In this document: positions 39,557-63,321 of the stretch, in pieces
Position numbering within the stretch: the stretch's first letter is position 1
Layout of the letters: each line of letters opens with the position of its first letter
Assembly: GCA_010093995.1 (NCBI GenBank)
Contig: ML992506.1
Coordinates: 975,196 to 1,039,118 of the forward strand
DNA length: 63,923 nt
Reading direction: 5' to 3'
DNA from: Elsinoe ampelina
Taxonomy: Eukaryota
The notes under the pieces: model-generated
Database searches by the model: none
What the model was told of the DNA's origin: nothing
Seen by the model: the letters and a program-made list of their open reading frames with translations, nothing else
Made by a program: the position numbers and the translations under genes

Positions 39557-39586
39557 CGTTATAAAAGTCCTAAGCGTAGAGAGTTA
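39557..39586 (+). repeat. Left terminal inverted repeat
   Basis: CGTTATAAAAGTCCTAAGCGTAGAGAGTTA versus the reverse complement of the right end, TATTATAAAATCCCTAACGCTAGAGAGCTA: 22/30 identical, and 4 of the 8 mismatches are transitions. Confidence 0.75.
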
Positions 39587-39638
39587 GAATATTAGGTTTC
39601 TCTATATTAAACTAAGTTTAACTACGTTAGGTTACTAC

Positions 39639-39709
39639 AAACGCACCGTACCTACCTAAATTTAGTTAAACACACTATACCTATCTAATTTTAGTTAAAC
39701 GTACTATAC
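39639..39709 (+). repeat. Subterminal 29-bp tandem repeat (~2.5 copies)
   Basis: AAACGCACCGTACCTACCTAAATTTAGTT / AAACACACTATACCTATCTAATTTTAGTT / AAACGTACTATAC. Confidence 0.85.
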
Positions 39710-39756
39710 GTGCCTTAGATTAGATAAACGCTCTACTTGCCGCGACTAGAATAGAT

Positions 39757-40515
39757 ATAGAAATTAATAAGTATCTTCCGGAGAGAGCCCTCTAAGCTAG
39801 TGTTATTATAGATCTTGTCTACTAGATAGAGGAGAAGTATATACTCTATATTATTAGAGCTTAGTATAGAAGCGCTTTTGCTATAATAGGAAAGTAGACA
39901 TTATACGCCTTATTCTTTAGCTTACAACATAAAACCCTAAACTAATATATACTTATTCTAACTCTATTTTATCGTCTCTACTTAGTTGTCTATTAAGGTA
40001 TTAGATGTCTCTAAAGATAAGTACTTTCGCGTAACTATATAGCTAGCGACAAAGGTTAATACTAACAAAAAGCGCCTCTATCGCTCTATAGCCTATAAGT
40101 TCTACTATCTAGCGGCCTATATCGTTAACAATGTAAAACAAGCTTATAGAGGGGCATTTATAACTTAGACTTATAGATATAAGGAAGCTTTTCCCGAGAA
40201 GAACTTAATTATTATAGCTAAGCACAGTTATAACATTAAGTATAAATACCTATAGACCTGTTCTAGTACTTAGAAGTCGTTAGTAACGTAGGAAGAGAAT
40301 AACGATAGGAGCTAGATATACTATATTAATAGTAGCTATAGTAGTAAGGCTATAGCCTATTCTAAGAAGATTAATACTAATATAGACAGGTACGGGAAAT
40401 GTAATAGATATTTAGTTTAGGCTAAGCTAATCCCTTGTCTACTAACACGGAATAGTATACCTACTAGAAGAATAATTCTAGAGCTACAAAAGACTACCTA
40501 GAAAAGTAAGGTCTA
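39757..40515 (+). pseudogene. SprT-like (GCNA/ACRC-type) zinc metalloprotease, RIP-mutated
   Basis: gcc tat aag ttc tac tat cta gcg (40091-40114) reverts by transitions to AHEFCHLA (HExxH). It is followed by HGGAFxxW, KHSYxIxYKYLWTC and the zinc ribbon HSKKIDxxxDRCGKCxGxLVQxKP (~40355-40430). Confidence 0.8.
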
Positions 40516-41335
40516 ATAGACATTAGTATAGTGTCTAAGTAGCCCCGGAAATAGTACTAAGGATATAGTAGTCTAAATAACAGCTTAAAGGCAGTTATAG
40601 CGGAGAAGTAAATACTCTTTCTAGGAAGTTTAAGATCTACCCTAACTGCCTATCTACGAGGTTATTAGTAAGGAGGTAATTAGTAATAATAAGAGACTTC
40701 TTCCGCTTCTTACTCTTCTCCTTTGCCTTACCGAGCTTAATACTAGCACGGCTATAGACATAGACGAAGGTAGGGGTAGTACGCTTCTTGCCTTACTAGC
40801 TCTTAGCGCTAGTTATAGCAGTTGTCGGAGAGGTAATAGAGGCAGTGTTTAGGTTAAGATCGCGGTACTTTATTGCTATATATTAAAGATAAGGTTACCT
40901 CGACGTGCACTAAGCTTCTAGTAATAACCTATAGTTATAGCTATATACGAGCAATAGTAGTTATAGAGGGAGTAGTAGTAGTAGCTTCGGTTATAGTATA
41001 CCTTACTATAGTAGAGAGCAAGAAGGAAGATATAGAGGAGAAAGAGAGTATTTCTCTCTCGGAGGTAGATATAATAACACTTTTTCCTACTATATTCCGC
41101 CGCCCTACTATTACTACTACTAAGTAGTAGTTATAGTAATAGCGCATGTAGGATAATCTAGTATATAATCTTATAGACAGGATTTGTTATATATATATTA
41201 TATACTAATAATCTTACAAGGAAATACTTACGATCTATATAGATATAAAGGAGACTTTAGAGGACAAGGAAGAGGCTACTTGCTATACTAAAGGGTAGCT
41301 TCTTCCTCGACTTGTTTCTTACGCATAGTATATAT

Positions 41336-42070
41336 ATAGAGATTAACAAGAATATTCCCTAGTAGGTCTTCTAAGCTAGTATTATTATAGATCTTGTCCG
41401 TTAGATAGAAAGGAATAAGTCCTTAGTAACTACTCTAGTAGTATCGAGTAGATCTCTACGATATAATAGTAAATAGAGTAAAGCACTATCGTCTATATCG
41501 GAGTCTTATTAGTAAACTTATTATAGAGAATAAACTTTCCTCTTAGACTACTAACTCCGTTAGTAAAACTAACCTAAAGATAACTTACTAACCTAAGCCT
41601 TTTACCGCTATTACTAAATACTTAGGGTATATCTTAAGTATCTTAAAGACTAACTTCTATAACGCCTCGCTATAATTTCCTAAGCTATTATAATTAGTAA
41701 AGGAATAGACTAACTCTTTAGCGTAAAAACTATATAAGGCACCTTAGGCTATAAACCCTATATAGTTTAGGGACTAACTTAATAATATACAGGTATAAAC
41801 TAACTAGTTAGAGTAATACCTACGAAAGTTATTATAACTTGCCTACCTAATATAGTCTAGTAGTTAACCTAAGTGTACCTAAGCGTTAGGCTGTTAACGT
41901 AAGAGATAATTATTCTAGCTACGAAAGGAGTACTCTAGCTTCGTTAATGCCTACTACGCTTACTAACTATACCTAGGGATCTTAACCTTTCTTATTTTAA
42001 AGCCTTAGCTAGGTAGAGCTATTTAGACTTCTATAACTTATTCTATAGCATGTTATATGTGTCGAAGTTA
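41336..42070 (+). pseudogene. Orphan ORF relic sharing its N-terminal ~25 codons with the SprT-like locus
   Basis: De-RIPed start MEINKNIPQQVFQAGIIMDLVRQME resembles MEINKHLPERALQAGVIMDLVHQME at 39757. Its stops are RIP-type TAA/TAG. Confidence 0.45.
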
Positions 42071-44720
42071 GCTATGTTATTAATATATATCCGGCTGTAT
42101 AGTTTTATTTTATCTACTAGCACGACGTAGATACTATAGTAGATTTACGAGGTAGAGTAGACACGCCTACTAGTAAGGGCATTCTATCTAGCTCGCGCGC
42201 GTCGATTTGTCTAAGGCTTAATTAGTGTTATACTATACTCTTAATTAGCTACTCTATTCGGCCGAGTAGGCTAATATAGATCTACTAGCGCTCCTATATA
42301 GTATAGGCATTAACGCCGGCCCGATCTACTAGACTAGAAGCTATTCTCTATAGTTATTATAAATATAATACAAGCTAGTAACTTACCTTATAGGCTATTA
42401 GGTAATGCTTCGTTAGTGCCTTTATTGTTTGTTGTTTATTCTTATACCTAGAGCTAGTCTTACCTCTTATTACTACGTATCCTCTACTATTTAGTTATAC
42501 ACTAGATAAAGTCTTATTCGTCTATATTAGGATCATTAGGATTATAGTTAGATAGTTTTCTACACTTTAAAGAATAGTAGAACTTAACGTAGAGGTTACT
42601 TACCTAGGAAGAATCTAGTTCGAGTCTATCGGGATCTAGTTTAGTATCGAACTAATTAGAGTATTTAGTTCTCGAGTTAGAGCCTATATTAGCTATACCT
42701 TAACGAGCCTCGCGAATAAACACCGCTATTACTTACTATAGTAATAGCCTAGGTAGCATATTAATAAGCGCCTCTAGTTCTCTTACTATACGCTATATAG
42801 CCTCTCTCTTAGTACTAGACTAGCTAAACTAAGAAGTGATATTCACTGCATTACTTATGCCAACTAGCGTACTCTAGATCTTAATTAGTTTAGTAGCCGA
42901 TAGCCTAACTAACTTCGAGAGGTTGTCGAATACTACTAATATATTTACTAGTTTAGTGTTATAAGTAGTAACCTAGTCTTTCTATCTAGCCTTCTTATTC
43001 GTAAGTTTAAAGGCGTCCTTAATAAAGCGTACATAATTATGCTTTAAATAATTAGAATCGAGGCTAGTAACTACTTCGAAATTATAGATAGCCTTTAAAA
43101 AATGTATTATTAAGTACTATTTCGGAAAGTTAAAGTCGCTCTCTTCTTTCCTGTTACTATAATAGGCCTAGAAGATTTCTTTATACTTGTTTATCCTAAA
43201 GAGCGCAAGGTTAATATACTAGAGTATATCGTCGTTATAGGTCTTATAGTTTACTAGTAATATAAAGTTAACTAGTACGCGTATAAACTTAATAGCTTAA
43301 GGCGCCTTAACCTTCTCGAGTAGCGGCATAAATACTAGAAGTATCTAGCGTATAATACTCTTCTACTCTTAACCTGTCTATTACTTAATAGCTAAGTAGT
43401 GTAAGAAGTGTTAGATGCTAGGAAATACTAGTATACTATCGAAATGCTTGTCAATAATATTAAGTATAATCTTCTTTGCCGAGCGCTAGTAGCCTATTTG
43501 CTATATAGTCTCTCTAGCCTTTATATACCGTAGTAATCTCTATATAGGTATTAAATCCTAGAGTAATTTTCGAGTCTAGTATAAGACGTGTATTAAAACG
43601 CCTTTAAGAAGTTAGTATAGAATATCTAGTACTATCGCGTAGTAAATATTAATATACGAAAGATCCTACGCGAAGTAACTAACTATATAAACCTAAGAGC
43701 TTATATCTATCTTCTTGCTCTGCTACTAACTCTTATGTGCTTCTCTCTATAAGCGCTATTATCGCTACGTAGAGTAGTAAGTTTAGAATAGCATAGTAAC
43801 TACTAGGTTCTCTCTTTTATCTTTACTAATTAGGCAACTTATATAATAATATAGTAACTTTACACTAGTTATAGTAACCTATTCGGCGTAATCTATAGGT
43901 ATAGCGGCAAGTATAGGAAAGTACCTCTACCTCTTTCTATCCGTATAGGAGATTATTTTACTCTCTCTCGAGTAGTAATTAATAATAGCGTTAAAGATTT
44001 TCTTTATATAAGTATAGTAGGTCTTCTCCTTAATAATATTACTACTATCTTTAATAATAGGAAGTAAGCTAATTAGTAACTACTCTAGCTAGTAGTTACT
44101 ATTACGTGCTTCTACCTTTAGGTTGCCTAATAATAGATAGACAGTATATACTATAAGATCTCCTTAATAGTTTATTACCTAGGTCTAATTACTTATAACA
44201 ATTAATAGAATAATAGTAGCCCCTAGTATCCTAAGTCGCTTTTGTGTGTCTTATTACTAGTTACTGCTTGCTATTTCGATATATACTTATTATAGCAGCT
44301 TACTCTCGACAGCTTCTATAAAGACTCTATATAGGCTATAGTCTATGTCTACTACGAAACTGCAATAGCCAAGTAAGAAGTATATTACTATAAGAATATC
44401 TAGATGCTAAAATATGTATCTTTTAGGCCTACGATTAGTATTTAGTATAAAGCTTAAGGTCTGCTAGCCGTTAATACCCCCGCCTATATCTAAATTCTCT
44501 ATCTTCTCTATTAGTTCATTCGTAGTTCGCTAACTAAGGCTCTCTACTAGAGGTTATATACGTAGGTCTTTAAGCAATTACATAATTATAGCTCTACTAA
44601 GTTTCTCCTTTATAAGCTACTAGGTAAGACCTACGTCTATACTACTAATAAAGGCTTACTTTAGTTAAGTCTTGCCTAACTAATTGTGATTTAGTTTATC
44701 GTTAGTGTCGGTGTATATAT
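42043..44720 (-). pseudogene. Plavaka (CACTA/EnSpm-related) transposase, RIP-mutated
   Basis: De-RIPed motifs: WWWDTQKRL..GATIIPLIVMSDQT (~44180-44260), VYLSLGNL, CxDGKRRRCFPILAA..DYAEQ (~43880-43950), PDILHQLLKGV (~43600-43630), FPGIRHF..KQWTGQEQK, FNFPKWH, KDAFKLTNKK, and C-terminal IHVVP...YINN..DFDTY. Confidence 0.88.
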
Positions 44721-45144
44721 TATAGACTTAGAGAGATCTAGACAAGATTAGTTAACGCGAACTAAGAATAAACTATGTCTATAACTAACTCTTCGCTACT
44801 AGCTAGTATACTAGTAGCTATCTCGAACGTAGTATAATTAGATATAGCTCTACTAGATAAGGACAACCTCCTAGCACTCTACCCTATAGATATACTACTA
44901 GTTGTACTTACTATAATTACTTACTCTTTCTTATGCGTGCCTTCTATTATAACCTTATCTATGCCCTCCTCTTCCTCGTGTACGTCGCTATCGAGCCTAC
45001 TATTACTATTACTGTCTGTTCTATATGCTAGAGGTCGAGAGTTAAGGTTAGTAAAGAGACTAAGAGAATTATCCGCTATACTATACTATATAGTAGGTAA
45101 AGGGGAAAGGACACTCTCCGCTAGCTATAGACTTTCGTTTCTAC
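44719..45144. repeat. Direct repeat block A (copy 1; copy 2 at 52071-52496)
   Basis: ~426 bp colinear with 52071-52496 at an offset of 7352; differences are mostly transitions. Confidence 0.92.
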
Positions 45145-45169
45145 TCTAGTGTTTAGTTCGATTCTTAGT

Positions 45170-48100
45170 TACTATTATTCGTAGCGGAGTAAAGTAAACT
45201 AGTAAGTTATTTAGCGTCGGCGAACTATGTTGTACATTACTAGTAATACTACCTCGTTAGCCTTTATTAGATAGTAAGTACTCTCTCTTATTAAACAAGC
45301 AAGGATTATTACTAGCGTTGTCTCTATATAGATGTCTATCGCTACGTTACTCTAGTAAGACTTATACTATGTTACTTATTAGTAGCTCTCTTCTCTAGCA
45401 ATATAGTAGATATTAGACAAGGCCTCTACTAGATTATATAATCTTCCTATAGGCCGAGCATTTACTAATTTGCCTTAGTATATCTATGTTTGTTACTTAA
45501 GATCTAAATTCGTAGTTAGAGTTAGCTAGCTAAATTTTAGTAATAGTAGGAAGTAGAAAACGTTTAGATACTACATTATATTAGGTAACCTAAAAGATAG
45601 TTTAATATGCACGGGGAACTAAATTAGTCCGCTAAACTAAAGAATTATATTTTTAAGTAATATAGTTAGACTATTATCTAGTAATCTTAATTATTATCTA
45701 TAACAATTGTGTTCTTCTTTGCTATAGCTTATTAAAGTTTCTAGATCTTTACTTTCTACTTCTCTATTTCCTTGTAGATAACCTTCTATATTATTAATAG
45801 CCTACCCTGTCTACTATTAAGCTATTCTAGAGGCCTATAGAACGGAGCTATTAGCTTTATTATAAACGCCTCTATATAGTTAAATTTCTAAGACTTAATG
45901 TTCCTATAGACCTAAGCTAGACACTAAAGGATAGATTATAATACTAACGCTATATTAAGTAAGATTATAGTATCGAAGCAGTTTAGATTAAGACTAGTCT
46001 TAATAGCTCTACCCTAGGCAATTAAGATCCTTAAGCCTTTTAGCCTATTAGGTTCGATAAATGTATTGTTAGATATAGCTATATTAATAATGTTTATATA
46101 GGTAGGTATAGATGTTATTCTATAGTAGACAATAACTATATTAGCATCCTTATCGATCCTAATTGCTTTACTGTCTAGGTGCTTCTCGAGCTATTTTAGA
46201 TACTATACCCTTATTAGTAATAACCTAAATAGACTAAATAGACTAAACTAACTATTGTAGCAACTACTAGTACTAATAGTATAAACGTATAGATAATTAC
46301 TTACCTCTTTAGCTCCTTCGAATAGGAGATATTCTACTTAATAATCTTAGAAATAACACTATAAAGGACCTTTATCTAAGGACTAGTATAGATCTTGTCT
46401 ATGTACTACTATAGCACTATCTCCGAGGGGTTATATATAATTTCGTAGGCAAACTTAATAGTAAAGTCGCTAAACTCTTCTATAACTATAGAATTGTCCT
46501 AGAATATATCTATAAGAGCGAAGAATATAGAGAAAAGTAGTAGCGGCGCGACTAGGCTTAGTATTTACTTCTTAGTCTTCTTATTAAGGATTATCTCTAA
46601 TGTTACTTCGGGCTTATCGGATTTGTCCTTTTACCTATCGATTACCTCTTATATACTCTTATCTATATCTCGTTTAATTTTCTTCTATGTATTTATAAGA
46701 CTATAAAGATACTTATTCTCGATAGTAATCTCTAGGTCGAAGATAGAATACAGTAGAACTCTAATAGCTAGTAGACTAGGAGTAGTATCGAAAGGTTTCT
46801 AGATATAGTCTACGTTTATCTTAATAAGAATGTTCGTAAGGATAGTACTCTATTTGCTAACTGTTACTATAATCTCTTCTATAAACTATATACTTCTCTT
46901 TTTATTAAACTTACTAGAGTTGTTGTTTGCCTTATACTATTTGTCAATTACGAAGGCATAGTCTAATACTATTTAAAAGTTAAGCTTATTAGCGATAGCT
47001 TGTTAAGTCTTATCTAGTATTGTCTTTAGTATTACTTAACGTTTATTGTCCTTAGCCTTAGTTAGCTCCTACTTAGATTTATAGATGTAGTTCTTGTTAA
47101 ATTCTCCTATTCTACTTCTATTTGCATTAAGCTTTTCTAATTTAAAGTCCTTATATATAGCCGCTATTAAGAATGCTACTACGTTTAAGTACTTAATAAA
47201 TAGTATCCCGCTTATGCCTAGTATAAAAGGCCTCCCCGGTAGTATTCCTAGACAAAACTAGGTCTACGTCTTCTAGCTAGTAACCTAATAGAACTTATTA
47301 AAGATAATAGCGGTCTAGTTTATAGGCGTAGACCCTAGCTTTCTTTCTTGTCCCTTAGGAACAAAGTTCTAATCCTTAGCGTTTATATTATTCTTACTAA
47401 GGAAGTAGTAGATTATAGTGTCGTAAGTAGTAAAGAAGAACTAATTATTCATCTATAAGGTCTAGGGGTGTTACTTATATATATTAACTAGTTATAAGAC
47501 TATAATAGTGTCGATAGGCTTACTAGACTTATTTATTAGCTAAGACTCCTATTAGCGGTAGCCTATAGGTAGATTCTCTTTGCAAATTAAAGTATCTATA
47601 TTATATACGTTGCTATACTTATCTTCTCGTATAGCTTAGAATATTCTTCCCTAGTATAGAACGACCTTTATATTAGGTATAAACTTCTATATCTCCTACG
47701 CTTACTATTTTATTATATTTAATCCGCTAACAATTAGATTATAGCTAATAGTATCCGTAGAAGCGATATCTAGCTATAGCTTATTAACTAGTGTCTTTAC
47801 CTTCCGGTACTTACTCTACTTGTCCTTAGGTATAGTAGCATAGTTAGTATTCTAGATAACCTTTTTATTTAAGTTCTAAATTAGTAAGAGAAAGAAGAGT
47901 TCTATTAGAGTCTTTCTAAATTCTATCTTATATATAAACATAAATACTAGGTAGCCTTTAAGGTATTTCTTAAGTATAATAAGCGCTAAGTATATCTATG
48001 CTACCTCGACTAGATACTTCTTATTTTAACTAAAACACTATACACTAGCGTTTAGTAAGTAGATGTCTTTCTTAAAGCCTATAAAGTTATAAACTCTCTC

Positions 48101-49850
48101 CTAGAACTCTTTAGACTAGTAATTAATTCTAGTGCCTATAGGGATAAAGCTTTAGTTAGCTAGATTATTACTAGTTTACTTGTTATTATTGTTATTTATA
48201 GTATAAAGTTTAACGAAGTTCGAGCTACTAAGAGTCTTATTAAATATACAAGTTGTAAGCGCTAGAATAGGTATAGATAGCGTCTTAGGGACTAACGGAA
48301 TATAGTACCTTACTTACTCCTTACTAGGTATAATTATAAAGAAATACTAATTACTGTCTCGGTATTACTTATAGTATTTGTCTTCTGTTACTCGAGTAGG
48401 ATAATAGTCAATAGTAGTATTATTCTCGTTAGGCAGTAGAGAGCTAGGTTACTTCTTAGAGGTAGATTTACGTAGTAGTAGATACTTAGCTAGAGATAGA
48501 GAGGCTAGAGGTTCCTCTTTCTCTTCCTCCTAGACTAGAGTTGATAGCTTCTAACTATTACAATACTAAAGAGAGTTAACTAAGTATATTAGTATACACC
48601 TAAGTCGAACTAAGTGTTAAACTTATAAAGTACTTCTTCGGGGAGCTTCTTAACTAGATCTATACTAGGCGTAAGATAGACAAAGATTATATTACTACCT
48701 TTAACTAGGGAGTTAATATAGTTAATTATAGCAGTATATAGGTCGTAGTTATCTAAGATAGGTAGGATGTTATATAGCTCTATATAATTTATCTATATAA
48801 GGATAATATTATTACTAACTAACTTCTTCTCCTTTAGGAATAGCCTAATGTTATTAAGGCTATATTTATTCGAATTATAATTCTCTAGATGTGACCTTAA
48901 AATTCTTAGACTAAATACCTATAGACGACACAAATATCCTCTCTTTATAATTATACCTAGGCTAATGTCTAATTACTTAACAATTATAAAGTTAATAATA
49001 GTTTTATTAATAATGCTCTAGACTAAACGAGACATGTCCTCTAGTATTTACTACTAATATATAAGCTAACTAGTATAGTAATTAATATCTATACCTATAA
49101 GTCCGCTACTAAGTATAGAAGTCTCTAATCTTTTAGAGAGTCTACTATTAAACTAGATAGCAGAGAGGCGCTTTCTAATATGCTTCTTAGGATAAGCCTT
49201 CTTATCTACTTTAGTCTAATTCTTCTTATTTCTAAGCTCTTACGCCTTAATAGTAAGGATAAAATCTTTAATAATATTATAACTAGATATATCGTTATAG
49301 TTTCTAATATTCCTCTTAAACTAGTCTTAGTCTTAATAGTATAGTCTTTAAAAGAAGATCTTCGTATAGTTATCCTAAGAGTATTATAGAGAAGTTTTAA
49401 TATTATTTATAATTATAGTTATATTAACGTTACTATCCTAAGGTTCCTTATATTTAAGTCCTAGAACTATATAGGTATTCTTATATTCTTCCTACGCTCT
49501 TATATATATAGCGGCGTACTAGTTGTTATTCTAGTTAAAGAATTTAAGGAAGAATCTCTTAATCTTAAGGTTTTTATTAAGCTATACTTAAATTTCTATA
49601 GGAGGTCTTTCGTAAAGTAGAATGTTATTAGTAGCTATACTAGCGCTATTAGGCTAATTCTTAGACATATTATATATGTCTATAAGCTTAGTATATGCTA
49701 CAAATAAAGCTTAGAATAATATCTAGTAAATAGGTTAAGTAGGTATAGTAGATGTTAAAGAAGAGATTCTATAAAGGTGTTACGTATTTATAAGTTTAAA
49801 AGAATTAAGGAGAGAATTTATTAACGTAGTAGGTCTATATACTTCGTGAT
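45170..49850 (-). pseudogene. SNF2-like superfamily-2 helicase/ATPase, copy 1, RIP-mutated
   Basis: De-RIPed motif I LCLHEMGFGKT (~47908-47945), motif Ia LIVxG..QWAQEIRKFxPDxKVVLYQG (~47650-47740), TTYD, motif II WTAIIFDEFH (~47288-47320), motif III GMSGTP (~47200-47220), and HELICc RILIA..AIKTGLNL..D..ILLD....Q.LARVHR (~45905-46035). Boundaries are approximate. Confidence 0.8.
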
Positions 49851-50591
49851 ATATGCCTAACTAAGACTTAACTAAAGAGGAGATATTTAAGTAAAGAGCG
49901 CTTAAAAGAGAGATTAAAGAGGTTAAAGAAATACTAGAGAGCTATATAAGTTATTTGTTTATATATAAGAGAGTATAAATAAAAGTAAACTAAAGCAATT
50001 AAGGAGAGAAGTAACCTAAATTTAGTTAACTTAGGTTAGGCCCTAAACTAAGCACGTAGTAGTATACTAGATATAGCATATATATAATAGTAAATTACTT
50101 AGTTTAGACACTAAACTAAGAGTAACTATAGTCTATATACTTAGTTACCTTTTATTTTACATGCTATATATACTAAGGATACTATTGTTATATTTAGGGT
50201 AGATCTTAAGGAATAATAGTCTAATAAATAGAGGGAATATAGTAGTAGTTAATGTAAAATAATTAAACAATATTTTAATAGCGAAACTAGTATTTGTATA
50301 TAAAGGACAATAGTAATAGAACATAAATAGAAGGTAGTTAGTAGCCTATAGCGGAATAAAGAGTATAGTATGTATAGCGTATAGTATAGCTTATAGATGC
50401 TAGTAAAGGAACAAAGAAAGTAATATACTACTATCTAATTATCTAGACTTTATAATTGCTATATACGGAATTAAGTAGCAGAGTAAAGTAAAGGCTATAC
50501 ATTCCGTAGAACGGGCAGTTAATAGTATATTCTACATAATTATAAATACGCTTTATTCCTCGCCTAGCCCTGCTAGGAAGGCAATAGCAAG

Positions 50592-51368
50592 AGAGAATAC
50601 TACTAGTATAGCTCTACCTATAATGCTCTCTATAGTAAGCTACTATCTAGTAGGAGGTAGTAGATATATCTTTACCTATAATATTCCTCCGTCTCTTCCT
50701 CTTTGTTATACTAGTTATTCCTCTATAATTCTCCCCTTAATATCTTTATACTATAAGGCAAGTAATCCCTAGTAGACGCTAGCTTCTCTACTCTCTTTAT
50801 ATACGCTAGAACTCCTAGTAGTACTATCTATAAGATTAAGAGATACTCCGTAATAGATTTACTTAGTCGTAGCTACTAGGTAGAGACAGTAGCTAGTCCT
50901 ACTAATAATACGTAGCTAGTATAAAGGAAGCTATAGAGGGCAGTAGTAGCGGAGAAAGAGAAAGAGGTATTAGAGTCTCCTTACGCACCCTTAAGCCTAT
51001 AGCGGCATAGTAGGCAAGATAGAGAGGTATACTATAATAGATTTGCTCTAGCGTAACTACTAGGTACTAGTAGTAGTTAATTCTATAAATACGACATAGC
51101 TAGTATAGAGGATACTATTAGAAGTAGTAGTAATAGTAAGGTAGGAGTAAATGTTAGAGTCGCTATTATATATATAGTAATAGATAATTGTAGTGTACTA
51201 GGCGGGGGATCCGCTATAATAGATAGCTAGCTATTATCGAGGTTAGATAGAGAGGAGAGAAAAGGTTATACTAGGGATATTAACGCCTACGTTTAGGTTA
51301 GTATAAGCGGAAGGCGTAAACTAAGACGTTATAGTAAATTATATCTACAATGTAGTTATGTTACTATA
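50592..51368. repeat. Direct repeat block B (copy 1; copy 2 at 57763-58540)
   Basis: ~780 bp colinear with 57763-58540 at an offset of ~7171; differences are almost all C/T and G/A. Confidence 0.93.
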
Positions 51369-51493: not shown

Positions 51494-51693
51494 TAGTTAG
51501 GTCGAAATTTTAGATCATCCTTAAACTTCGAGAGAGAGGACTAAGACATTATTAGTTTAACGTAATAAACTACTAGCTGTCCTCTACCGGCCGTAGTTAG
51601 GTCGAAATTTTAGATTATCTTTAAACTTCGAGAGAGAGAACTAAGAAATTATTAGTTCGACGTAATAAACTACTAGCCGTCCCCTGCCGGCTG
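51494..51693 (+). repeat. 100-bp tandem duplication
   Basis: Two units starting TAGTTAGGTCGAAATTTTAGAT at 51494 and 51594, located between the two helicase units. Confidence 0.9.
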
Positions 51694-52070: not shown

Positions 52071-52496
52071 ATTATAGACTTAGGGAGATCTAGATAAGAT
52101 TAGTTAATATAAACTAAGGATAAACTATATCTATTACTAACTCCTCGCTACTAGCTAGTATACTAGTTACTATCTCGAACGTAGTATAATCGAATATAGC
52201 TCTACTAGATAAGGACAACCTCCTAGTACTCCGCCCTATAGATGTGCTACTAGTTGTACTTACTGTAATTACTTACTCTTTCTCGTGCGTGCTTTCTATT
52301 ATAACCTTGTCTATGCTCTTCTCTTCCTCGTGTACGTTGCTATTAAGCCTACTATTACTATTACTATCCGTTCTACGTGCTAAAGTTCGAGAGTTAAGGT
52401 TAGTAAAGAGACTAAGAGGATTATCTACTATACTATACTATATAGTAGGCAAAGGGGGAAGGACACCTTACGCTAGCTATAGGCTATCGTTTCTAC
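52071..52496. repeat. Direct repeat block A (copy 2)
   Basis: Colinear with 44719-45144. Confidence 0.92.
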
Positions 52497-52519
52497 CTTA
52501 TTACTTAGTTTAGTTCTTA

Positions 52520-55500
52520 TTTACTATAATTCGTAGTAGAGCTAATAGGACTAAGCTATTATATAGCGTCGGCGGACTAAAGCTAAAATTATATCTACGC
52601 TATAGTACTAGACATGTTAAGATAGAGTTTGCTCTAATATATCTAGGCGACAGAGTTTGTTAGCTGTTTCTTACTTAAGGACAATATTAAATACTATACT
52701 TAATTAGCTATTATCGCGCTATTGTCCTTAGTAGAGACTTTTATAGCAAGTATAAAATAGAGAGCGCTACGTAGGCATAATAATTTTAGCTAGTAAACGA
52801 TTTATAGCTCTTACTATCTCGTGTCTTAACTTGTCGCTAGTATTATAATAAGTTAGTTATAAATAGCCTCTACGAAAAAATAGTAATAGTAGTATACGAA
52901 GATGCCTCGGCTATATAATATTAGGTCGTTTATGCCTATAGTTAATCTATTAGAGGTAGTCGATTAGTTCGCTAAACTAAAACTAGTACTTTTTAGGTGA
53001 AAATTGTAGGCGTTCCCTTAACCGATCTTAATAAGGATAAACTAATAATTTACTATTACTCCTCTATTAGTTTAAATAACTACGCTTTTAGTTTGTCCGC
53101 TTTGCTATATTGTCTTATATAACCTTCTATATTATTATTAGTGTATCGTAGCTATAGTTAACTTACTTCTTTAGCTAATAGGATAGTATAGTTAGCTTAA
53201 GTGTAAATACTATTATTATATCTATACTAGCGAATGTTATATTCTCTAAGGCACTATCGGAAGTCTACTATAATAATTAGATCTATATACTAACTTCGTA
53301 TTAAGCGAAGTTACACTATTAAGGCGGAAGTACTAGTACTCTACTCGTTATAGGACTATATACTATTCCTAGTTACAAACTAACTAGTATAGCCTTCTCG
53401 AAGTAAGTTTACTTTAATATAGCTACTCTAATAATGCCTACGTAGCTTACTATAGACTTCTCTTTATAATCGACAATAACGACTTTAGTGCCCTTACTAA
53501 TCCTAATAGCTTAGCTATTCGGGATTCTCTTAAGTCTCGTAGATATAGCTCTCTTATTAGTAACAACCGAACTAGACTAACTAAGTCGAACTAACTACTA
53601 TAGCTACTACTAGCGCTATAGAGTTATACGTACGAATAATCCCTTACTACCTCTTAGTCTTCTAACTATAGGCTTTCTATTCTATAATCTTAGGGATAAT
53701 AATACAAAGGCCTTATATTTCTAATCTAGTATAGCGCTAGCTATATACTTATCTACTACTTCAGCTCGAAGTACAAAGTCTAAGGAGTGTCTATAGCCCT
53801 TACTATAATGTTAGTCGTTGTTATTGCTCTTCTTATACTAGTAGAGCGGCGGAGTAAATAAAGTAAGCTTATAATAACATCTAGTATAATTACCTCTAGG
53901 TTCCTTTTGCTTATCAAATATAGATATTATCCCGTGCTACTCTCTCCTATATAGCGTCTCTATAATTGTAGTTAAGGTATACTCCCCTATACGCGAAGCG
54001 ATTTATATATATAGTGCTACTAAAGAAATAAGATATCTATTCTTAATTAAAACTTTAGAGTCCTAGTTAAAAATATCTCGAACCTAATAAGACATAAAAG
54101 TAGGTATAGCTACTAAATGTTTTATAATTAGGTTAAGATACATGTTAAGAGGAATAAATAGAAGTCTAGCTATCTATATAGGGACTAATATAAAGATTTT
54201 AAACTAGAAACAAGAAGTAACTATTATATTTACGAAAAGGGGGCCGTAATAGGCTTTAACTATTCTTATATTACCTTTATATAGGCGAAGAGCTATCTCT
54301 TATTATATTATATAGCAATATTAAGTTAAATTATGTCTAGTTTATTCTCTCTTATTCTTTGTAATAGGTACGTCTTTGCCGCCTATAGATAGAGACTAGC
54401 TCTACTATATTAAAGCTGCCTTTATTAAGTAGTAGGTATCTAATTCCTTTCTCTTAGTATAATTAACCTTATATTAAATATTAAGCTTAATACTAAACCT
54501 ACGTATGTAGTTAGTAGAGCTATACTAATACCGAGTAGTAATTACCTAACAAGGAGAGGTATAAGATAGCTAGGCGTTATAGCGTTCCCTTAAAGAACTT
54601 ATTCGCTCTAATATAAAATAAGTTTATTTCTAGTTTTAGGCTAACCGAACTAACTTAAGTTTATACTTAGTTAAGAGGCGTAACCTAACCTAAAGCGTCT
54701 CTACTATTTATTAGGAGGTAGTAGCTAGAACTAATAATAGTTAGCGAGAATTCTTTATTAACTTCTAAGTATACTACGTATAAACCTCGCTAGTATATAA
54801 GGGTAAAGCCTAATAACTATATTAGTAGTGACGCCTATACGCTTCTTTATAGCACTATACTATTCTTATTTAATTTAGTTAACTCTAAGTTCGGTATAGA
54901 ACTAAAACTTGTACTATTACTTCTACTATAATAGGGGACAAGATCCTATCCCGCTAACTTGTTTTACTTATTATTAAACGCTCTAGTCTATTATATCTAT
55001 AGTAGTATCGCTTCGTTTCTATTGTTAATAATATTAAGAATATATTACTTTTTTAATACTAATATTAATCTCGTGTTAGTAGAAGTAAGTCGTTATCTTC
55101 TTAGACTTACTCTCTTTGCTCTAATATATTATAGCATACTAGGCGAGCTATAGGAAGTTACTAGTAACAAAGTAGAACTTAGGAGAGGTATTAGAGAGCT
55201 CCGAGAGATTATATTTATCTAGATAGATAGCCGGCCTTAGGTGTATAGTAGCTTATATAATATCCTTTAAGCTATTAAAGCAGTAGGAATATAGATAGCG
55301 CCTCGGCGGCATATACTATAGTCTAAATAGGCTATGTTCTTCTAGCGGGGGAGAAGGAGCTATATTCTTCTAAAACTATATAAAGTAAGACTATACCCCG
55401 AACTAAGTCGCTAGGTTAGTTAGAATCTGTCTAGCTATAGTTATAGGACTATTAAGCAAGTTTACTTCTAATAATAATAATAGAAATTATAGGATTTATA

Positions 55501-57000
55501 GGGGCTATAGTCTCTTAGGGGTAGAACGAGCTAAATAAAACTTTATTAGTTAAGAACTAAATAGTTTTATAAATAACATAATAGCAAATAAAATATAGTA
55601 GTATTACTACTCTTGCCTTTAGCAGTTTAGTTGCTATTACGGGTATTAAACGTTCTATATTATAATATTCTCTTTCTACTAATCTTCTTTACGCTTCTTA
55701 TTAGTATTAATGTCTATAAAGTAAAGCTTCTTAGGAGTAAAAAACACTTCCGAGTCCTCTTCTATAGTAGCCTCGGCTATAGGAAGTAGTTACTAGCTAC
55801 TATAATATTAATAAGAGTTATCTATAAGTGTTAGTATATATAGATAAATAGGGAAGAGGTAAACTTACTTTATATAAAGTCGAGAAGATCTTTAATAGAT
55901 GCTATAGAAGAAGCAAAATAGAGAAAGATCTTATAGGCACTAGGGATAAGAGTTGTAACATGCTCGGTAATAGTAGTATCTAGATCGAAAGAGTCTTTAA
56001 TAGCGAAGACTTATACGGAGTTATACGTGTTAAGCTAGTAGAGTTAGAGGTAATTACCTCTAATATTAAGGATCTACCTAAGCTTACTAATATAGTAATT
56101 AACATAACAATTCTTATCCTTGCTAGTACTAGGCTTTCTTAAGTTATAGACGCAAATATTCTTTCTTAATGTTAGATACGAGATAGTGTCTACTTTAATA
56201 ACCTCTATAATCTAGATCGTAGTAAATTCAATGTTAATTTAGACACGATTAGACACTAGCCCCTAGTTAAAGCTAAACATTCTATAATAAGGCTATATAT
56301 ACAAATCTAATCTCTTATCGCCTGTCTTTATACAAGTTGTACGTCTCTCTAAGGATAGTATTCTTACTTAGGAGAGTATTAGTATCTATATAGACGAGGT
56401 AGCTAAAGGATATAGACTCTAGGTGCCTCCTTTACCTAGCGATGTTATTCTTTCCCTTTTAACTAACGGGAGATTTACCCTTATTAATTATATAGTATTT
56501 TAGAATAATCGCTATATAGCTTTTATCTTGTTAATATTAACTATAGTCTATAAGTTCTCCTTAAACTAGTCTAGATCTTTCCGATCTAGTTAGTTAACGA
56601 AGAGCTAGAAATTGTTAGGCGTGCTATTTAGTAGCCTAGTTTTAATTTTAAGGCGTGCTTTAAGCACTTTAGAATTACGTAACTCGCTTCTATCTTGTTT
56701 CTTAATTTTAATATTAGATTCTATAAAGACTTTTAAGATTATTTTCTTTATTCTTGCGAACGTAGTAGAGTATTACTAGTTATCCTAATTAAAGAAGAAT
56801 TAGATAAATTTCTTATTAATATTGTTATTACAAAGCGTATTCTTAATAAGAGCTAGTATAAGGTTATTAAGTAGAATCTTTTTTATAGGTTTAGTAGCGA
56901 CCTTTAGCTTCTTTATCTTCGGTAGTATAGTACTATTATATGTATTTAATAAGTATAAGAATATCTACTAGTAAAGGCGTCGTATAAGGTAGGTAAGGTT
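52520..57000 (-). pseudogene. Highly diverged paralog of the SNF2-like gene (copy 2), RIP-mutated
   Basis: Colinear peptide-level similarity to copy 1 (PNSQAIGIGKGTKVVIV vs PDSKAIGIDKDANIVIV; shared aat aat ata gaa ggt tat = DDIEGY; a GTP motif near 54585). It has the same position between blocks B and A. Boundaries are approximate. Confidence 0.65.
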
Positions 57001-57762
57001 AGAGGGGTTAAGATTATATAGCTAGGAACTAAGCGTAGTAAGTTAAGCACTATAGAGCAAATAGCAGCAATTATAAATACCTACTACTTAGTATAATATT
57101 AAAATGCTACGCGGAAAGTAGGTAGTAACTTCTTAAATATAATAAAATTTGTATTTAAGATAGTATACTAAAGTAAGTAGTATACTTATAACTAAGATCT
57201 AGTTCGGGCCTCGACCTAAAAGTAAACTAGATTAACTAAGTCTATATTTCGCACGTGCTAATAGTAACACGTAATAATTACTAATATTAGGTTAATACTA
57301 GAACTAAAAGTAAATAAGTTAGTTTACTACTAACAAATATTATAGGGCGTAAATTAGGTAAGCAAACAAAACGTAGCTATCGGAGAATATTATAAGTGCT
57401 AATTATTGTAGAAAATTAGTGTTAAAGCAATTAACTATACTAAACACTTATATGTTAGTACTATATACAAAGTTATATATACTTCGAATAGCTAGTAGAC
57501 TATTTAACAAAGAGTATTATCGTATAAAGCAATAACCTTAATATCTTTATAGTAGATAGAAGACAAGATAAATAACAAGAAATAAAGAAAGATATATAGT
57601 ATACTTATATATATTAAATAAGGAGATTTTATTTACTAGTTAGAGGAGAGAGATTAAAGCGATAGGTATATAATCTATATAGAAAGAAGTGTATTACTAA
57701 CGCGAGGAAGTTATAACAAAGTACTACTAATAACGAAACTCTACTATAAAAGCAATTATAAA

Positions 57763-58540
57763 AGAGAATACTACTAATATAGCTCCGCCTATAACGCTCT
57801 CTATAGTAAGCTACTATCTAGTAGGAGGTAGTAGATGTATCTTTACCTACGATATTCCTCTATCTCTTTCTCTTTATTATACTAGTTATTCCTTTACAAT
57901 TCTCCCCTTAATATTCTTATACTATAAGGTAGATAATTCCTAGTAGACGCTAGCTTCTCTACTCTCTTCGCGTACGCTAGAACCCCTAGTAGCGCTATCT
58001 ATAAGATCAAGAGATACTCCGCGATAGATTTGCTTAGTTATAGCTACTAGGTAAAGATAGTAGCTAGTCCTACTAATAATACGTAGCTAGTATAAAGGAA
58101 GCTATAGAGGGCAGCAGTAGCGGAGAGAGAGAAAAAGGTGTCGGAGTCTCCTTATACACCCTTAAGCCTATAGCGGCGTAGTAGGTAAGATAGAGAGGTA
58201 TACTATAATAGATTTGCTCTAGCGTAACTACTAGGTACTAGCAGTAGTTAATTCTACAAACATAATATAGCTAGTATAGAGAAAACTATTAGAAGTAGCA
58301 GCGACGGCAAGGCAAAAGTAAATATTAGAGTTGCTATAGTATATATAACAATTGATAATTATAGTGTACTAGGCGCAGAAATCCGCTATAATAGATAGCT
58401 AGCTATTATTAAGGTCGGATAGAGAGAAGAGAAAAGGTTACACCGGGGACGCTAACATCTATATTTAGGTTAGTATAAGTAGAGAGTACAAACTAAGGCG
58501 TTATTACGAATTGTATTTATAATGTAGTTATATCGCTATA
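57763..58540. repeat. Direct repeat block B (copy 2)
   Basis: Colinear with 50592-51368. Confidence 0.93.
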
Positions 58541-58805
58541 TAATAAGTATACGACAAAACTAAGAGGAGATAAAGTTTAGCGTATTAAACTTTATAGTTC
58601 TATAAGTGTTAGTTTAGACTAACTAATTATAACTAAGCATAATTCTAGTATGCCTCTCTCGTAAGTAAACTAAGATCTAAGGCTTATCTATCGTAAGTAA
58701 CACTCGCACCGAATTACTACCTATACTACTGCTCTCTTACCTCTATCTCTCTCTTCTCTTCTCCTCTCTATAGCTACACCTATATCTACTTCTTATTAAC
58801 TAGCG

Positions 58806-59540
58806 ATGTGCTTAATCGAAGCTATTAAGCAAGCTCTCGCTCTTAATAATAAAGGCTATAGAGACTTATATAGTCTCTTAGAGGATATTATAATAGGTAA
58901 AGGCATAGTTAGAAGAACATTTAGGTCGATTTCTAATAGGAGAAGGTTAGAGAAGGAGGTACTTCTAGTAGCACTAGATAGTAATAATATTCGGTGTATA
59001 TTTCGGCGTACAATAGAGCTCTTAGAGAGCGGCGATAGTTAAGCTACCTTCTATACTCTCGTCTATAAGATAAGTACTAATTTTAGACGTTAGTAGGTAT
59101 AATTACACTTAAGATTATATAAGCCTAGAGGAGCGTAGAATAGTGCTAATACGCTTGCCTCGAATAAATCCTTAGATTACTAATTACAATTATAAGTGCC
59201 TTTACTCTCTAATCGACTAGACGACATACTATTAGTAGTTTATAAGGATAGAGAGATATATCCTATCTACTCGATTAGAGATCTTCTACTTGCATATTAT
59301 AAAGCTATAACTGCCGTGTCTAAGGAGAATATAGATATTAAGTTCGATTAGCTAAGAGTAATATTAATTATAACAGACCACTATATATATAACAAGTAAA
59401 GCAATGTTATAGGTTAGAAGGACGATAGAACGCTATATTTCGCTACAATAGAGAATGCTATCTAGTTTAAGGCTATTATCTTATCTAAGATATTATATAG
59501 TTTACCTCTTTATATCCTAATAAGGCGACAAGATTAAGGA
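58806..59540 (+). pseudogene. Orphan cargo ORF relic (~240 codons)
   Basis: The ATG at 58806 follows a CT-rich leader, and the frame continues past RIP-type stops. No family recognised. Confidence 0.4.
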
Positions 59541-60939
59541 AAGTATCTAGCCGAAGCAAGTATAAAGGAGAATAGTCTAGTAGTAGACTAAGTTAAACTA
59601 AAAAGTAGTAGGGCAATCTACGCTAAGCTATACCTACTACTAAACCCTAGAGTTTTAGTTCGTTTACTACGCTTTATTCTTCCTTACCTTTTAACTAAAT
59701 TGCCCTTTAGAATTACTTATCTATCCTTCTACTATTAATCTATCAAGTTTATTAGTATCTTTCGGCTAGGCTCCTAAGTATAGATATTAATTATACTAAC
59801 CTTGTTTCTCTAGCGGCTAATATCTAGACTATAGAATTAAGTATATAGGCTTCTCTTATCTGTTTAGGTATTAAAGTATAGTCTTCTAACAGTCTCCCTA
59901 ACTAGCTAGAGGCTTAAATTAGAAGCTCTCTACTATATATACACGGAGAAGAGTATAATTACGTTAGTAGCTAGTAAAAGCGATATAGGACCTAGTAGCC
60001 TAAATAGCTTAATAGATAGTAACTCCTAGAGAAAGACATTACACTTATTTAGTAGAAAGTAGGCTAATTATAATTAATAGCGGAGGAGAATGTAAGCTTA
60101 ATTAGATAACTCTAGCGAGAGAATAATATACTTAGAAAGTACATTAGTAAAGCTTTTTACGCGTTTAGCATTGCCTCTATAGACCTTACTAGTAGAGTAT
60201 TAAGGGGCTTATTCGGATTAAATAAGAGTATATAACGCTACACTAATAGTGCTACTCTACTATTACTATGTATAGTTACTAATAGCTAATTAACACCTAC
60301 TCTCTATTACGACATAATTAGTAGAAGATAAGCTACTCTATCTAGCGTGTCTTATTTAGACACCCTAGATAGCGAGATAGTAAGCAATTAATACTTTTAG
60401 CACTTAGAAGATATACTACTTAGTAAAGGGGGGACTACTAACGTAATTAATAAGGGAGCTACTACATAAATTGTACTACCTATCTATATATATAATAGCT
60501 AGTTCCTATAGTCTTTCGAATTAGTATATAATTGCTTAGTTTAAGTTTAATCTACAATTTCTCTCTATATATTTCTACTCTAATTGTTGCTTAACCTAAT
60601 AACAAATGCTATATTTAGTTCGAGTATTTAGTCTAAGTAAGTTCGAGTAGCTTTCTTTTTTAGTTTAGCTTCTAGCAATTAGCACTCCGCGAGTTAGACC
60701 TAGCTATAAGTCTAATTTAATACTCTTACTAGTTAAGATTACCTTAGGGTATAGGTAGATATAACTAATTCTAATTAGAAGAAAGTTACGTACTCTAAAC
60801 ACCTAACTAAGTTATTATCTAACTTAAACTAACGCTAAGTCACTATAACGTATATAAGATAACTATCTATCCCTCTTATAGTATGTATTATTCTAGCCTA
60901 CCTTACTAACTCTCTTATACCTATATACCTCTTTATTAG

Positions 60940-62500
60940 AACTATTACGAACTAAGATGTCTTAGGCACGTTAGCGCTTATATAGCTCGGACTATAAGAC
61001 TAATAAGTATTCTAAAGATAACAATTTAGGTTATTTCGACTAGGATAAAGCAGAGTAAGGCTTTAGTATTAAGGGAGACTAAGCTAACTATATAGGCTAT
61101 AAATATAACATCGAAGATAAAGAAGAAAGTATAAATTAGACATTACTACTCTCGATCTAAGTTTAAGAGAGCTATAACCTAACGAGAATAGCCTAATATT
61201 AGCCTCTATACCGGTTAAGATAGTAAAGCGGAGGTAATAGAACGTACTAAACTAGTATCTTAACATTTTTAAGGCAGTATATAACGATCTACGTGCAAGT
61301 ATAGCTATTAAAGTAAATTATAATACAATATTACTAACATTAGACAATTAATAGCTACTTCTACGAATTATATAGTACTAGCGCTCGGTCCGTAACTAGC
61401 TACTAGTACTTTATCTATAGAGAACTATAGGCGAATACTCTTCCGTAGTTATAGCTAGTAAGGTAAGTTACGTAGCTAAAGCTAATTACTTATTAATATA
61501 TATATAGCTCCGAGAGGCGCTCTACTATAGTTATAATAATATTACACGAATAGTAAGCGAGATACTCCACTACGAATAGCTAGCTAAAGGGCTAGAGAAT
61601 AGTAAGCTACCGAATTAGGTATATAGGCTACTAGAGGAAAGAAAGTACTAATATAAGGACGGCGATTTAGTACGCGCTAGATGTACTTATTAATTAATTA
61701 CTTACATATAGTAGCGTAAATGCTTTAGGAGTCCTTTAATATATAAAGCCTTCTAAGTAGCCTTTATCGGACATGTAGGCTTAGCTATAATAGCTAGTAC
61801 TTACTATTACTTTAACGAACTAATACTCTTTCTTATTTCCTCTCTCCTAGTAACGATTTATATACTCTTAGTTAAGTAAGTAGATAGAGTTAAGTCCTAC
61901 TTACCTAAGGGAATATTAGTATTTAAATATATAGAACCTTTAGAACTTAATTATATCTAACTAAGTATTTAGAATAACTTTCTAGCGTAGATTAGCCCGA
62001 GATAGGTTCTTATCCTTCGTTAGCTAAAACTTAGCTTTACTAAGTGCATCGAGAGAAATAGACTTACTATTGTAGTAGTAGTGTTAAATATATCTCTTTA
62101 CGCTAATACTATAGAGAGACTATTAGATAGAGAAGATACAAGGGAAAGGTACATATATACCTTCTCGTTTTAGTTCGGCCTACCTAACTTTAAACTAACT
62201 TATAGAGAAGTTAGGCATGTAATAATAGGCCTAATAGCAGGAGTAATAGCTATTATATAGCACTAGTACAAAATGCTTCTACTAAGCACCTTTTAAGAGG
62301 TAAGCTCGATTCTCCTATTAGCTTCTTAAGTTTAATACTAATAGATTAAGAAGAGCGTCTAATTAAGGCTAAATGCTCTATTATAGCGTATTAAGGTACT
62401 ACTTAGTTCGCGTATAGGAGCGAAGTACTAAATTGCTCTATAGTAACTCTTACGATAGAAGTATAGCTAGCGTAGATACCTAATATAGATAGCGACCTTA
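60940..62500 (+). pseudogene. Cargo ORF relic with possible DUF6532-like domain
   Basis: A long frame broken only by RIP-type stops. De-RIPed CFRSPLIHEAFQAAF...YFDELTP.LIS..LATIY....EWADG (~61720-61890) resembles my recollection of the fungal DUF6532 pattern (F..P.I.....F....EW..G); unverified. Confidence 0.4.
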
Positions 62501-63291
62501 TTGTAACTTTAACTACTACTAAACTAAGTTAGGTTATAGTTAGTATATACAAGAATTAATAGACTTAATAGCGACATCTACCCGGGCTACTTAATTATAC
62601 ACGTGCTATACTGTCCTAAGATGGACAACTTAATAGCGATTTACTAGCGGTCGAGGCGTAGTAGAAGGATTTCTTAGGTACATAGACGTAGATAAACTTT
62701 TTGTCCTTCGCATATAAGAAGTTTAGAGGCCTACTACGTAAACTAGTCTTATAGTACTAAATCGGCCTAAAGTATAGTAGCAGTATCTTAGACATTAAGG
62801 AGGACAGACATTCGCTAGATAGAGATACTTTTATAGAACTAAGGGATAAGGATATAGAATTACAAGAAGATAGTATATATATTATTATCGAGAGTAGTAT
62901 TAGGTAGAACGTAAAGCAATATATGTATTCTAGCGACCTTATATAATTTTCTAAACGTAGTAGACGAATTATAAGGTCTATATAATATATAGATATATAT
63001 AATATATACTACGAGGTAAGCTACGTAATAGGATATTTCTATAATTAATATTGTTAAGCTTATAGAGTAGACACGAACTAATTACTTTGCGAACTAAGAA
63101 ACGCTTAAACTAAGATAAGGGATACACGTAGTACGCTATCTACTATTAGGCCGTCTCTGTTTGCTACGCATTAGAGGTTTTTAGATTTCTACGGGGAAAA
63201 ACTATATTACTTCTAAGTAGGACCTAGGGGTAACTAGGGAATTACATCGAACTAAGTTAAACTAAGTTAGTTACTTAGAAGTAGTCTAACG

Positions 63292-63321
63292 TAGCTCTCT
63301 AGCGTTAGGGATTTTATAATA
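63292..63321 (-). repeat. Right terminal inverted repeat
   Basis: The reverse complement matches 39557-39586 at 22/30. The overlapping CTAACGTAG (63286-63294) is the reverse complement of CTACGTTAG at 39622-39630. Confidence 0.75.

Follow-up and report, generated by a model that had tools for sequence, protein, structure and literature searches.

The question raised by this locus is whether one giant DNA transposon, or a pile of smaller elements, accounts for 23.8 kb of heavily mutated DNA in the fungus Elsinoe ampelina. The DNA analysed, referred to here as the window, is a stretch of 63,923 nucleotides (contig ML992506.1 of assembly GCA_010093995.1, positions 975,196 to 1,039,118 of the forward strand), and the segment of interest occupies its positions 39557–63321. 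A prior reading of the letters by themselves, the sequence-only reading, had described this segment as a Plavaka-type transposon with terminal inverted repeats that interrupts a Copia element, carries a cargo of genes, and is disguised by repeat-induced point mutation (RIP). The explanation that we favor, and hold to be on balance probable, is that 39557–63321 is one dead copy of a ~23.8-kb cut-and-paste DNA transposon of the Plavaka family, within the EnSpm/CACTA-like DDE group.

The window falls into two parts, with a gene-rich portion of ~54% G+C reaching ~37.1 kb and a block of ~30% G+C continuing from there to the window end. In the AT-rich block the TpA/ApT ratio is 1.8–2.2, compared with 0.56 in the gene-rich part, and (CpA+TpG)/(ApC+GpT) is 0.08–0.48, compared with 1.28; the triplets TGA and TCA are nearly missing, indicating that CpA and TpG are close to exhausted. 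Every frame of the block contains 5–40 stops per 200 codons, and frames were translated in read-through mode with X at stops. The block bears a strong RIP signature, and the host is presumably a RIP-active fungus and, by that signature, an ascomycete. Since RIP makes transitions only, the purine-N-pyrimidine (RNY) codon bias of a former gene outlives it.

A Copia pol gene split by inserted DNA

The segment is flanked on both sides by Copia pol sequence on the minus strand, as had been noticed from the letters alone. On the left, the downstream half of the relic, from the reverse transcriptase (RT) to the C-terminus, lies at 37843–39556 and stops at the insertion site; a Pfam scan of the six read-through frames of 36001–63923, arranged as 12 translations and read at E≤0.01, places an RVT_2 domain at 38587–39267 on the minus strand (E 2.7e-11). 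The position of the break was determined with HMMER using the read-through minus-strand translation of 37300–40155, a query that deliberately runs 600 nt beyond the claimed junction, against a library of 1.84 billion representative proteins. At E≤1e-3 the query matched 9,924 proteins, the best being P0001 (1577 aa, E 5e-99, 38% identity). Among the 150 proteins listed, the match never starts before query residue 200 (39558–39556), and in 13 of the 150 it starts at residues 200–210; the first of these starts are at residue 200 in P0145, 201 in P0001 and P0008, 202 in P0078, and 203 in P0109, residues 200–203 corresponding to 39558–39547. The matched Copia proteins themselves extend ~1000 residues further N-terminally past the break. 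The Copia pol gene is cut within one codon of the junction between positions 39556 and 39557.

On the right, the upstream half of the relic (63324–63923, minus strand) comprises the end of the integrase SH3-like domain followed by a low-complexity linker, and is cut by the window end. By tblastn, residues 999–1561 of P0001 align with 39555–37843 (E 1e-77) and residues 815–853 with 63922–63803, both on the minus strand; the latter match has an E value of 0.16 when 72 long proteins are compared with the whole window, and 3e-5 when the right flank is searched alone. The aligned text of the right flank, RDIRFNKT*FYKLEEQP, is an RDVRFDE-type stretch facing RDVRFDETAFYKAHEEP in P0001, and the two sequences are separated by V>I, D>N and E>K, substitutions of a kind that RIP produces. 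The same process changes codons for His and Cys to Tyr codons. The domains of P0001 are Pol_BBD, gag_pre-integrs, rve, SH3_retrovirus and RVT_2, and residues 815–853 form the end of SH3_retrovirus (754–825), after rve and before RVT_2 (1087–1321); taken together, the two flanks show the integrase–RT order of a Ty1/Copia pol gene, with its RVT_2 domain.

Both Copia halves are on the same strand, with the left half in codon phase p0 and the right half in p1, and this shift is the one expected from removing 23,765 bp together with a 2-bp TA copy (23,767 is 1 mod 3, the inserted length that the Copia frame needs). The rejoined low-complexity linker is 160 aa long, compared with 144 aa in P0001, and 297 aa separate the RDIRFNKT-type motif from the point where the Pfam match to RVT_2 begins, compared with ~272–283 aa in P0001. 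The shared strand, the restored frame and the fitting linker length together indicate that 39557–63321 is inserted DNA that splits the pol gene of an older Copia element. The linker contains a 12-nt unit repeated seven times (94%) at 63692–63775, in frame and translated as a repeat of four residues; the corresponding region of the closest homologue is of low complexity as well. A second library protein, P0002 (2851 aa), aligns with the Copia query 10 times over, each time in a different stretch (E 8.6e-88), and is probably a gene call spanning tandem or nested Copia copies in another genome.

The inserted DNA has the termini that the sequence-only reading had described, with 30-bp imperfect inverted repeats at 39557–39586 (plus strand) and 63292–63321 (minus strand) that agree at 22 of 30 positions, four of the eight mismatches being transitions. 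TA stands immediately outside both of them, at 39555–39556 and 63322–63323, as the two copies of a putative target-site duplication. A 22/30 inverted repeat is, on its own, no more than chance, and it is the independent placement of the left end by the Copia break that makes the inverted match at 63321 meaningful. Of the 24,223 possible right ends with which the left 30-mer was compared, 63321 stands alone at the top, with 22 identities and four transitions; the runners-up have 19 identities (one position), 18 (four positions) and 17 (19 positions). A right end at the end of the repeat block Y1 described below (~51,390) was also considered and rejected, as it agrees with the left terminus in inverted orientation over no more than ~10 nt and is not one of the top 15 right ends.

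Inside the left terminus, at 39639–39735, lies a subterminal array found by Tandem Repeats Finder (TRF), with 3.3 copies of a 29-nt unit, that contains TTAGTTAAAC twice on the plus strand; the shared core, TTAGTTWAAC, occurs once more on the minus strand 56–65 nt from the right end, where it reads TTAGTTTAAC inverted at 63256–63265. A scan for this motif finds five matches in the window, compared with 0.49 expected from whole-window shuffles. Its opposite orientation at the two ends gives modest, post hoc support to their pairing. Another genomic copy carries extra 29-nt units, as seen from a joint of 39675 to 39640.

The mobilizing enzyme predicted from the letters is also present as a relic. 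A Plavaka transposase domain, PF18759, is found at 43585–44520 on the minus strand with an E value of 1.1e-21 and 77.8 bits (cut-off 26.3), covering profile positions 5–321 of 325, and purine/pyrimidine periodicity follows a single codon phase, p0, through ~41.7–44.4 kb; the relic as a whole is placed at 41700–44520, and the span of ~2.7 kb agrees with the sequence-only reading. The segment 39557–63321 accordingly combines the features by which Plavaka elements are recognized: a PF18759 transposase domain, a 2-bp duplication and terminal inverted repeats. A word-indexed protein search came back blank for the Plavaka region, for the Plavaka domain by itself and for 46100–48199 (minus strand), an uninformative result in that RIP-skewed translations share mostly low-complexity words.

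Copy number, internal repeats and coding relics

Public sequencing runs show that the segment belongs to a repeated family. Six runs cover part of 34001–44000, and four of these were compared with 36601–56600 at 80% likeness. Two of the four, runs X1 and X2 of a single sample (organism A), which is possibly the source of the window, consist of contigs of 150–450 nt. In both, a unique contig with a depth of ~187 ends at 37538, and beyond it the coverage of the AT-rich block consists of 14,988 (run X1) and 10,355 (run X2) short contigs that are 80–99% alike and differ almost entirely by transitions, which identifies them as RIP-diverged paralogues. Summed depth is 45–62 thousand over the Copia part, and falls to 27.7 thousand in the bin containing 39557. 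Across the 24 bins from 39,936 to 56,600 it is then flat, with a mean of 10,723 in run X1 (coefficient of variation (CV) 0.13, 57 times the unique depth) and 13,224 in run X2 (CV 0.11, 70 times unique). The Copia flank, at ~240–330 times unique, stands at about five times the level of the element, and the step between the two lies in the bin that contains 39557. Three unrelated families present at one and the same copy number would be a coincidence, and a single long amplified unit is favored; 39557–63321 probably moved as one.

The other two runs, X3 and X4 from organism B, have contigs only over 36601–37624, at depths of 4–10, and do not tell whether organism B has the element. Some of its contigs match 37510–37624 at ~85–88% and run leftward into G+C-rich sequence unlike the window, while another matches 36601–37523 with one difference; organism B is thus a close relative in which this Copia-end sequence lies elsewhere, beside DNA that does not look RIPed.

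The interior of the element contains an imperfect duplication of ~7.3 kb. Block X1 (44646–45254) is repeated as block X2 at 51998–52606, with 86% identity over a 513-bp core (44715–45227) and 0.91 identity over the whole 609-bp block in the purine/pyrimidine (R/Y) alphabet, at an offset of 7352. Block Y1 (50575–51385), which itself includes a 184-bp internal repeat, recurs as Y2 at 57746–58555 with ~86% identity and differences that are almost all transitions. A 100-bp tandem duplication (51494–51691; TRF, 2.0 copies, 90%) occupies the spacer between Y1 and X2. The second unit, X2 to Y2 (51998–58555), is collinear with 44646–51385 through four blocks linking 44.6–51.4 kb with 52.0–58.6 kb at offsets of 7352, 7344, ~7245 and 7171. 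One of the links is a weak repeat, 46027–46400 against 53371–53743 (68% nucleotide identity over 342 bp), and another is the resemblance of the relic at 48.3–49.7 kb to 55756–56829 (24% identity over 370 aa, E 1e-9). Since the X and Y copies differ almost solely by transitions, each pair must have been near-identical before RIP. The unit interiors, by comparison, are at random-level identity and show many transversions, even in the RIP-proof purine/pyrimidine alphabet, and as neither global alignment nor an R/Y dot plot could align them, the simple view of a 7-kb transposon present twice was abandoned. Reversal of RIP from the two copies opened no frame, with at least 14 stops in each of the six frames of Y and four stops in the best frame of X; block Y looks non-coding. 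Inspection of the unit borders revealed no terminal inverted repeats and no clear duplications. Gene conversion, recombinant units, or terminal regions shared by nested elements could each explain how X and Y came to be alike while the interiors are not. In contigs of both organism A runs, 50645 is connected with 42375 through 14 intervening letters; the joint may be an artefact, or else a head-to-tail junction of an ~8.3-kb segment in another copy, near the size of the ~7.3-kb duplication.

Codon periodicity points to several former genes in addition to the transposase. Inside the element, RNY reaches at least 0.10 in 26 of 77 windows of 900 nt, compared with a mean of 1.9 and at most 10 in 200 simulations under a first-order Markov model, and at least 0.13 in 13 windows, compared with a null mean of 0.23; for reference, the Copia RT and Plavaka regions score 0.13–0.17. 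Sustained runs are seen at 39.8–40.8, 41.7–44.4 (the transposase), 44.4–45.2, 45.6–46.2, 46.2–48.2, 48.3–49.7 and 55.5–56.8 kb, with weaker ones further right. Two of the relics of open reading frames (ORFs) beside the transposase are at 46200–48200 (phase p1, RNY 0.11–0.20; minus strand, as judged only by its protein-like translation) and 48300–49700 (minus strand, phase p0, RNY 0.12–0.24), the latter being a distant paralogue of 55.7–56.8 kb; neither has a Pfam or PDB match. The right arm (58556–63291) includes weak coding-like stretches at 58.4–59.0, 59.7–60.5 and 61.8–62.1 kb (RNY 0.09–0.12) with no Pfam match. These extra frames presumably were functional genes.

What such genes encoded was sought mainly in Pfam. 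The scan of 36001–63923 detected only two families, Plavaka and RVT_2, both in one of the 12 translations. A further 25 translations, in frames chosen for their stop density or their codon periodicity, were read at E≤5 or 10 and yielded a single match that is noise (HupE_UreJ, E 0.16), and none of the three ORF relics compared with PDB sequences had a match at E≤10. The sequence-only reading had filled the element with relic ORFs including a SprT protease and two SNF2-like genes; several ORF relics do stand by their RNY signal, but neither the six frames nor the 25 targeted translations contain SprT, SNF2-rel_dom or Helicase_C inside the element, and the proposed toolkit acting on DNA and chromatin leaves no detectable trace where Plavaka itself was found. 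With Plavaka and RVT_2 serving as positive controls at the same level of RIP, an SNF2 domain of ~300 residues should have left a trace, while a short SprT domain might escape. The six-frame Pfam scan was also free of TET_JBP, of DUF3435 and of any other family of recombinases, and neither it nor the 25 targeted translations showed a PF01555 methylase, PF00856 SET, ParB-like or 2-oxoglutarate (2OG) oxygenase domain, with the proviso that RIP could have erased a domain that is short or weak.

One long element or several

The most serious challenge to a single ~23.8-kb element is that the segment is a nest, in which an ordinary Plavaka transposon of ~10 kb (roughly 39557–44640 plus 58556–63321) was invaded by one or two unrelated X-to-Y repeats, Y being a long terminal direct repeat, and the composite was then amplified or the copy numbers came to be similar by chance. 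We regard this as unlikely, though it draws on several features of the interior. The direct repeats Y1 and Y2, of 810 bp each, are distinguished almost solely by transitions and flank 6.4 kb, an arrangement that also resembles a nested element bounded by long terminal repeats; the X1 boundary is a mere ~126 bp upstream from the Plavaka domain; the two units are collinear and yet unrelated in their interiors at the DNA level; and the bin containing Y1 has twice the depth of its neighbors. Against it, no RT, integrase, gag or other transposase domain is found in either unit in any frame, at a level of RIP that left RVT_2 and Plavaka detectable (between Y1 and Y2, at 51.4–57.7 kb, the Pfam scans gave no RVT, rve, RNase_H or gag family). 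The unit borders, moreover, have neither terminal inverted repeats nor clear duplications, and three independent families would all need to sit at ~57–70 times the unique depth within a CV of 0.11–0.13. Blocks X1 and X2 each have single depth, and the double depth of Y1 is equally well explained by Y2 lying outside the compared stretch, if other copies also carry two Y blocks.

Further observations weigh against one long transposon, and concern both its unity and its termini. The depth profile covers only 39.9–56.6 kb and derives from the contigs of one sample, summed depth is not a copy number, and contigs of 150–450 nt reveal neither gene order nor shared ends in other copies. By extrapolation from 271 matches in a sample of 101 million pairs, the AT-rich block contains ~950 inverted pairs of 30-mers that are as good as 22/30; of 2,874 window pairs drawn at random, 3.4% align locally as well as the two ends do or better (score 33, against a mean of 24.7 and standard deviation of 3.7). 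The TA flanks are trivial in AT-rich DNA and have weak specificity as a target-site duplication. The ends read CGTTATAAAAG and TATTATAAAAT (CGTTAT.. and TATTAT..), matching none of the published TGT..ACA, CATCA..TGATG or CATAC motifs; with CpA and TpG rewritten by RIP the original letters are unreadable, and RIP may explain the missing Plavaka end motifs. The right boundary has no Copia anchor, in that the linker at 63322–63802 fails to align and the junction is not resolved to the base. Finally, the Copia halves have unequal RIP indices, 0.48 for 37300–39556 and 0.08 for 63322–63923. Such a gap is odd for one copy with one history, and may be noise in a right flank of only 600 bp with tandem repeats.

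The frequency of equally good inverted pairs and the imprecise right Copia junction also speak for a reading in which the 22/30 match is a coincidence and the Copia gene was split by several independent insertions and rearrangements in an AT-rich graveyard of transposons, where 301 inverted pairs of at least 20 nt can be found. We consider this improbable. The Copia break coincides with the start of the left repeat to within one codon, 63321 is a lone outlier for that fixed left 30-mer, and exactly these ends with a 2-bp duplication restore both the Copia frame and the linker length. Depth is uniform, as is the RIP index (0.25, 0.25, 0.26 and 0.25 in four parts of 39557–63321), and a common subterminal motif is found at both ends in opposite orientation. 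A related proposal, a mosaic of unrelated transposons with a chance inverted repeat, was overturned by the flat depth, the lone best right end, and the Copia break with its restored frame. That the segment is instead a large segmental or satellite-like repeat merely containing a Plavaka relic is very improbable, since the flat multi-copy depth over 17 kb, the internal ~7.3-kb duplication and the hint of a head-to-tail arrangement in the 50645-to-42375 joint are met by a precise break in the Copia ORF, TA on both sides, inverted ends and a restored frame.

Under the single-transposon explanation that we favor, a history of the locus can be proposed. The transposase encoded at 41.7–44.5 kb on the minus strand would have recognized the ~30-bp terminal inverted repeats, and probably also bound the subterminal repeats containing TTAGTTWAAC, a role suggested by their placement. 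It would have excised the element and inserted it into the integrase–RT linker of a Copia retroelement, with duplication of TA. The element would have carried several further reading frames, including the distant paralogue pair within the internal ~7.3-kb duplication, and the family may have multiplied in this genome to roughly 60 copies. As repeats, these copies would then all have been struck by RIP until CpA and TpG were nearly gone and every reading frame was destroyed.

Relatives and significance

Plavaka transposases belong to the EnSpm/CACTA-like ‘CMCT’ clade (Iyer 2014, as cited; PMC12730594), and the elements are described as having 2-bp or 2–3-bp duplications and ends of the form TGT..ACA or CATCA..TGATG, with some basidiomycete families carrying TET/JBP genes (PMC12730594). 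In Marasmius, autonomous Plavaka elements are defined by PF18759 (PMC8290104), and in the ascomycete Tuber they have 2-bp duplications and CATAC ends (PMC12581995). The element reported here resembles these fungal relatives in its PF18759 domain, terminal inverted repeats and 2-bp duplication, and differs in that the published end motifs are not seen as such, no TET/JBP gene is detected, and 23.8 kb is not among the sizes of fungal Plavaka reported in the passages compared.

Its closest parallel in architecture is found outside the fungi. The red alga Bostrychia has giant Plavaka elements of 17.4–19.1 kb that account for one third of the genome and carry three accessory genes, PAG1–3, encoding a DNA adenine methylase with a SET domain, a ParB-like protein with a 2OG oxygenase, and a product without known function; giant Plavaka elements of Chondrus are also mentioned in that preprint (bioRxiv 10.1101/2025.02.11.637652). 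Common to both are a Plavaka transposase in a very long element, several extra frames, tandem arrays and massive amplification. In contrast, the element described here gives no N6-adenine methylase, SET, ParB-like or 2OG-oxygenase signal, which RIP may hide; it is longer; and it resides in what is presumably a RIP-active fungal host, with every copy seen being mutated. The sequence-only reading had suggested a new class of large gene-carrying DNA transposon, and this claim fails because giant Plavaka elements with accessory genes that modify DNA and chromatin are already published (bioRxiv 10.1101/2025.02.11.637652). The segment 39557–63321 belongs with these giant multi-gene Plavaka transposons, here in a RIP-active fungus.

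Two kinds of large element from ascomycetes also invite comparison. Starships, which are found in the Pezizomycotina, are similar in their large size and in carrying genes besides the mobilizing enzyme, and the element differs from them in its DDE transposase, inverted ends, 2-bp duplication, lack in any frame of DUF3435 (the tyrosine-recombinase ‘captain’ that lies near one end of a Starship), and a size far smaller than that of most Starships; the view that this 23.8-kb insertion, bounded by inverted repeats and a target-site duplication, is not a Starship is upheld. ToxhAT, a 14-kb cargo-carrying transposon of ascomycete wheat pathogens, is likewise not a Starship by name, being named apart from the Starships that carry it. 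ToxhAT is a hAT-type element with inverted ends, and it differs from the element described here in being shorter, in having an identified cargo (ToxA), and in having a transposase of another superfamily.

A broader proposal, which we offer tentatively and consider doubtful as it stands, is that this is the first giant (~24 kb) Plavaka family with several genes to be seen in a filamentous fungus capable of RIP, that it spread as a single unit to ~60 copies before RIP killed it, and that its extra frames, the paralogue pair included, formed a lineage-specific accessory cassette. Such a cassette would perhaps have had anti-silencing or DNA-handling functions, analogous to those of the red-algal PAG and basidiomycete TET/JBP genes and unrelated to them in sequence.

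The practical value is limited, as all copies seen are dead and the one described here does not suffice to name the extra genes. The locus nonetheless provides a worked example of how RIP-saturated DNA can be approached, in that purine/pyrimidine patterns survive in it, and an interrupted host element fixes ends that repeat statistics cannot. If the whole 23.8 kb is one unit, then giant size combined with high copy number would, in a RIP-active fungus, be within the reach of DDE cut-and-paste transposons and not of tyrosine-recombinase Starships only. At ~60 copies, such a family would by itself contribute AT-rich, gene-poor DNA on a megabase scale beside gene-rich regions.

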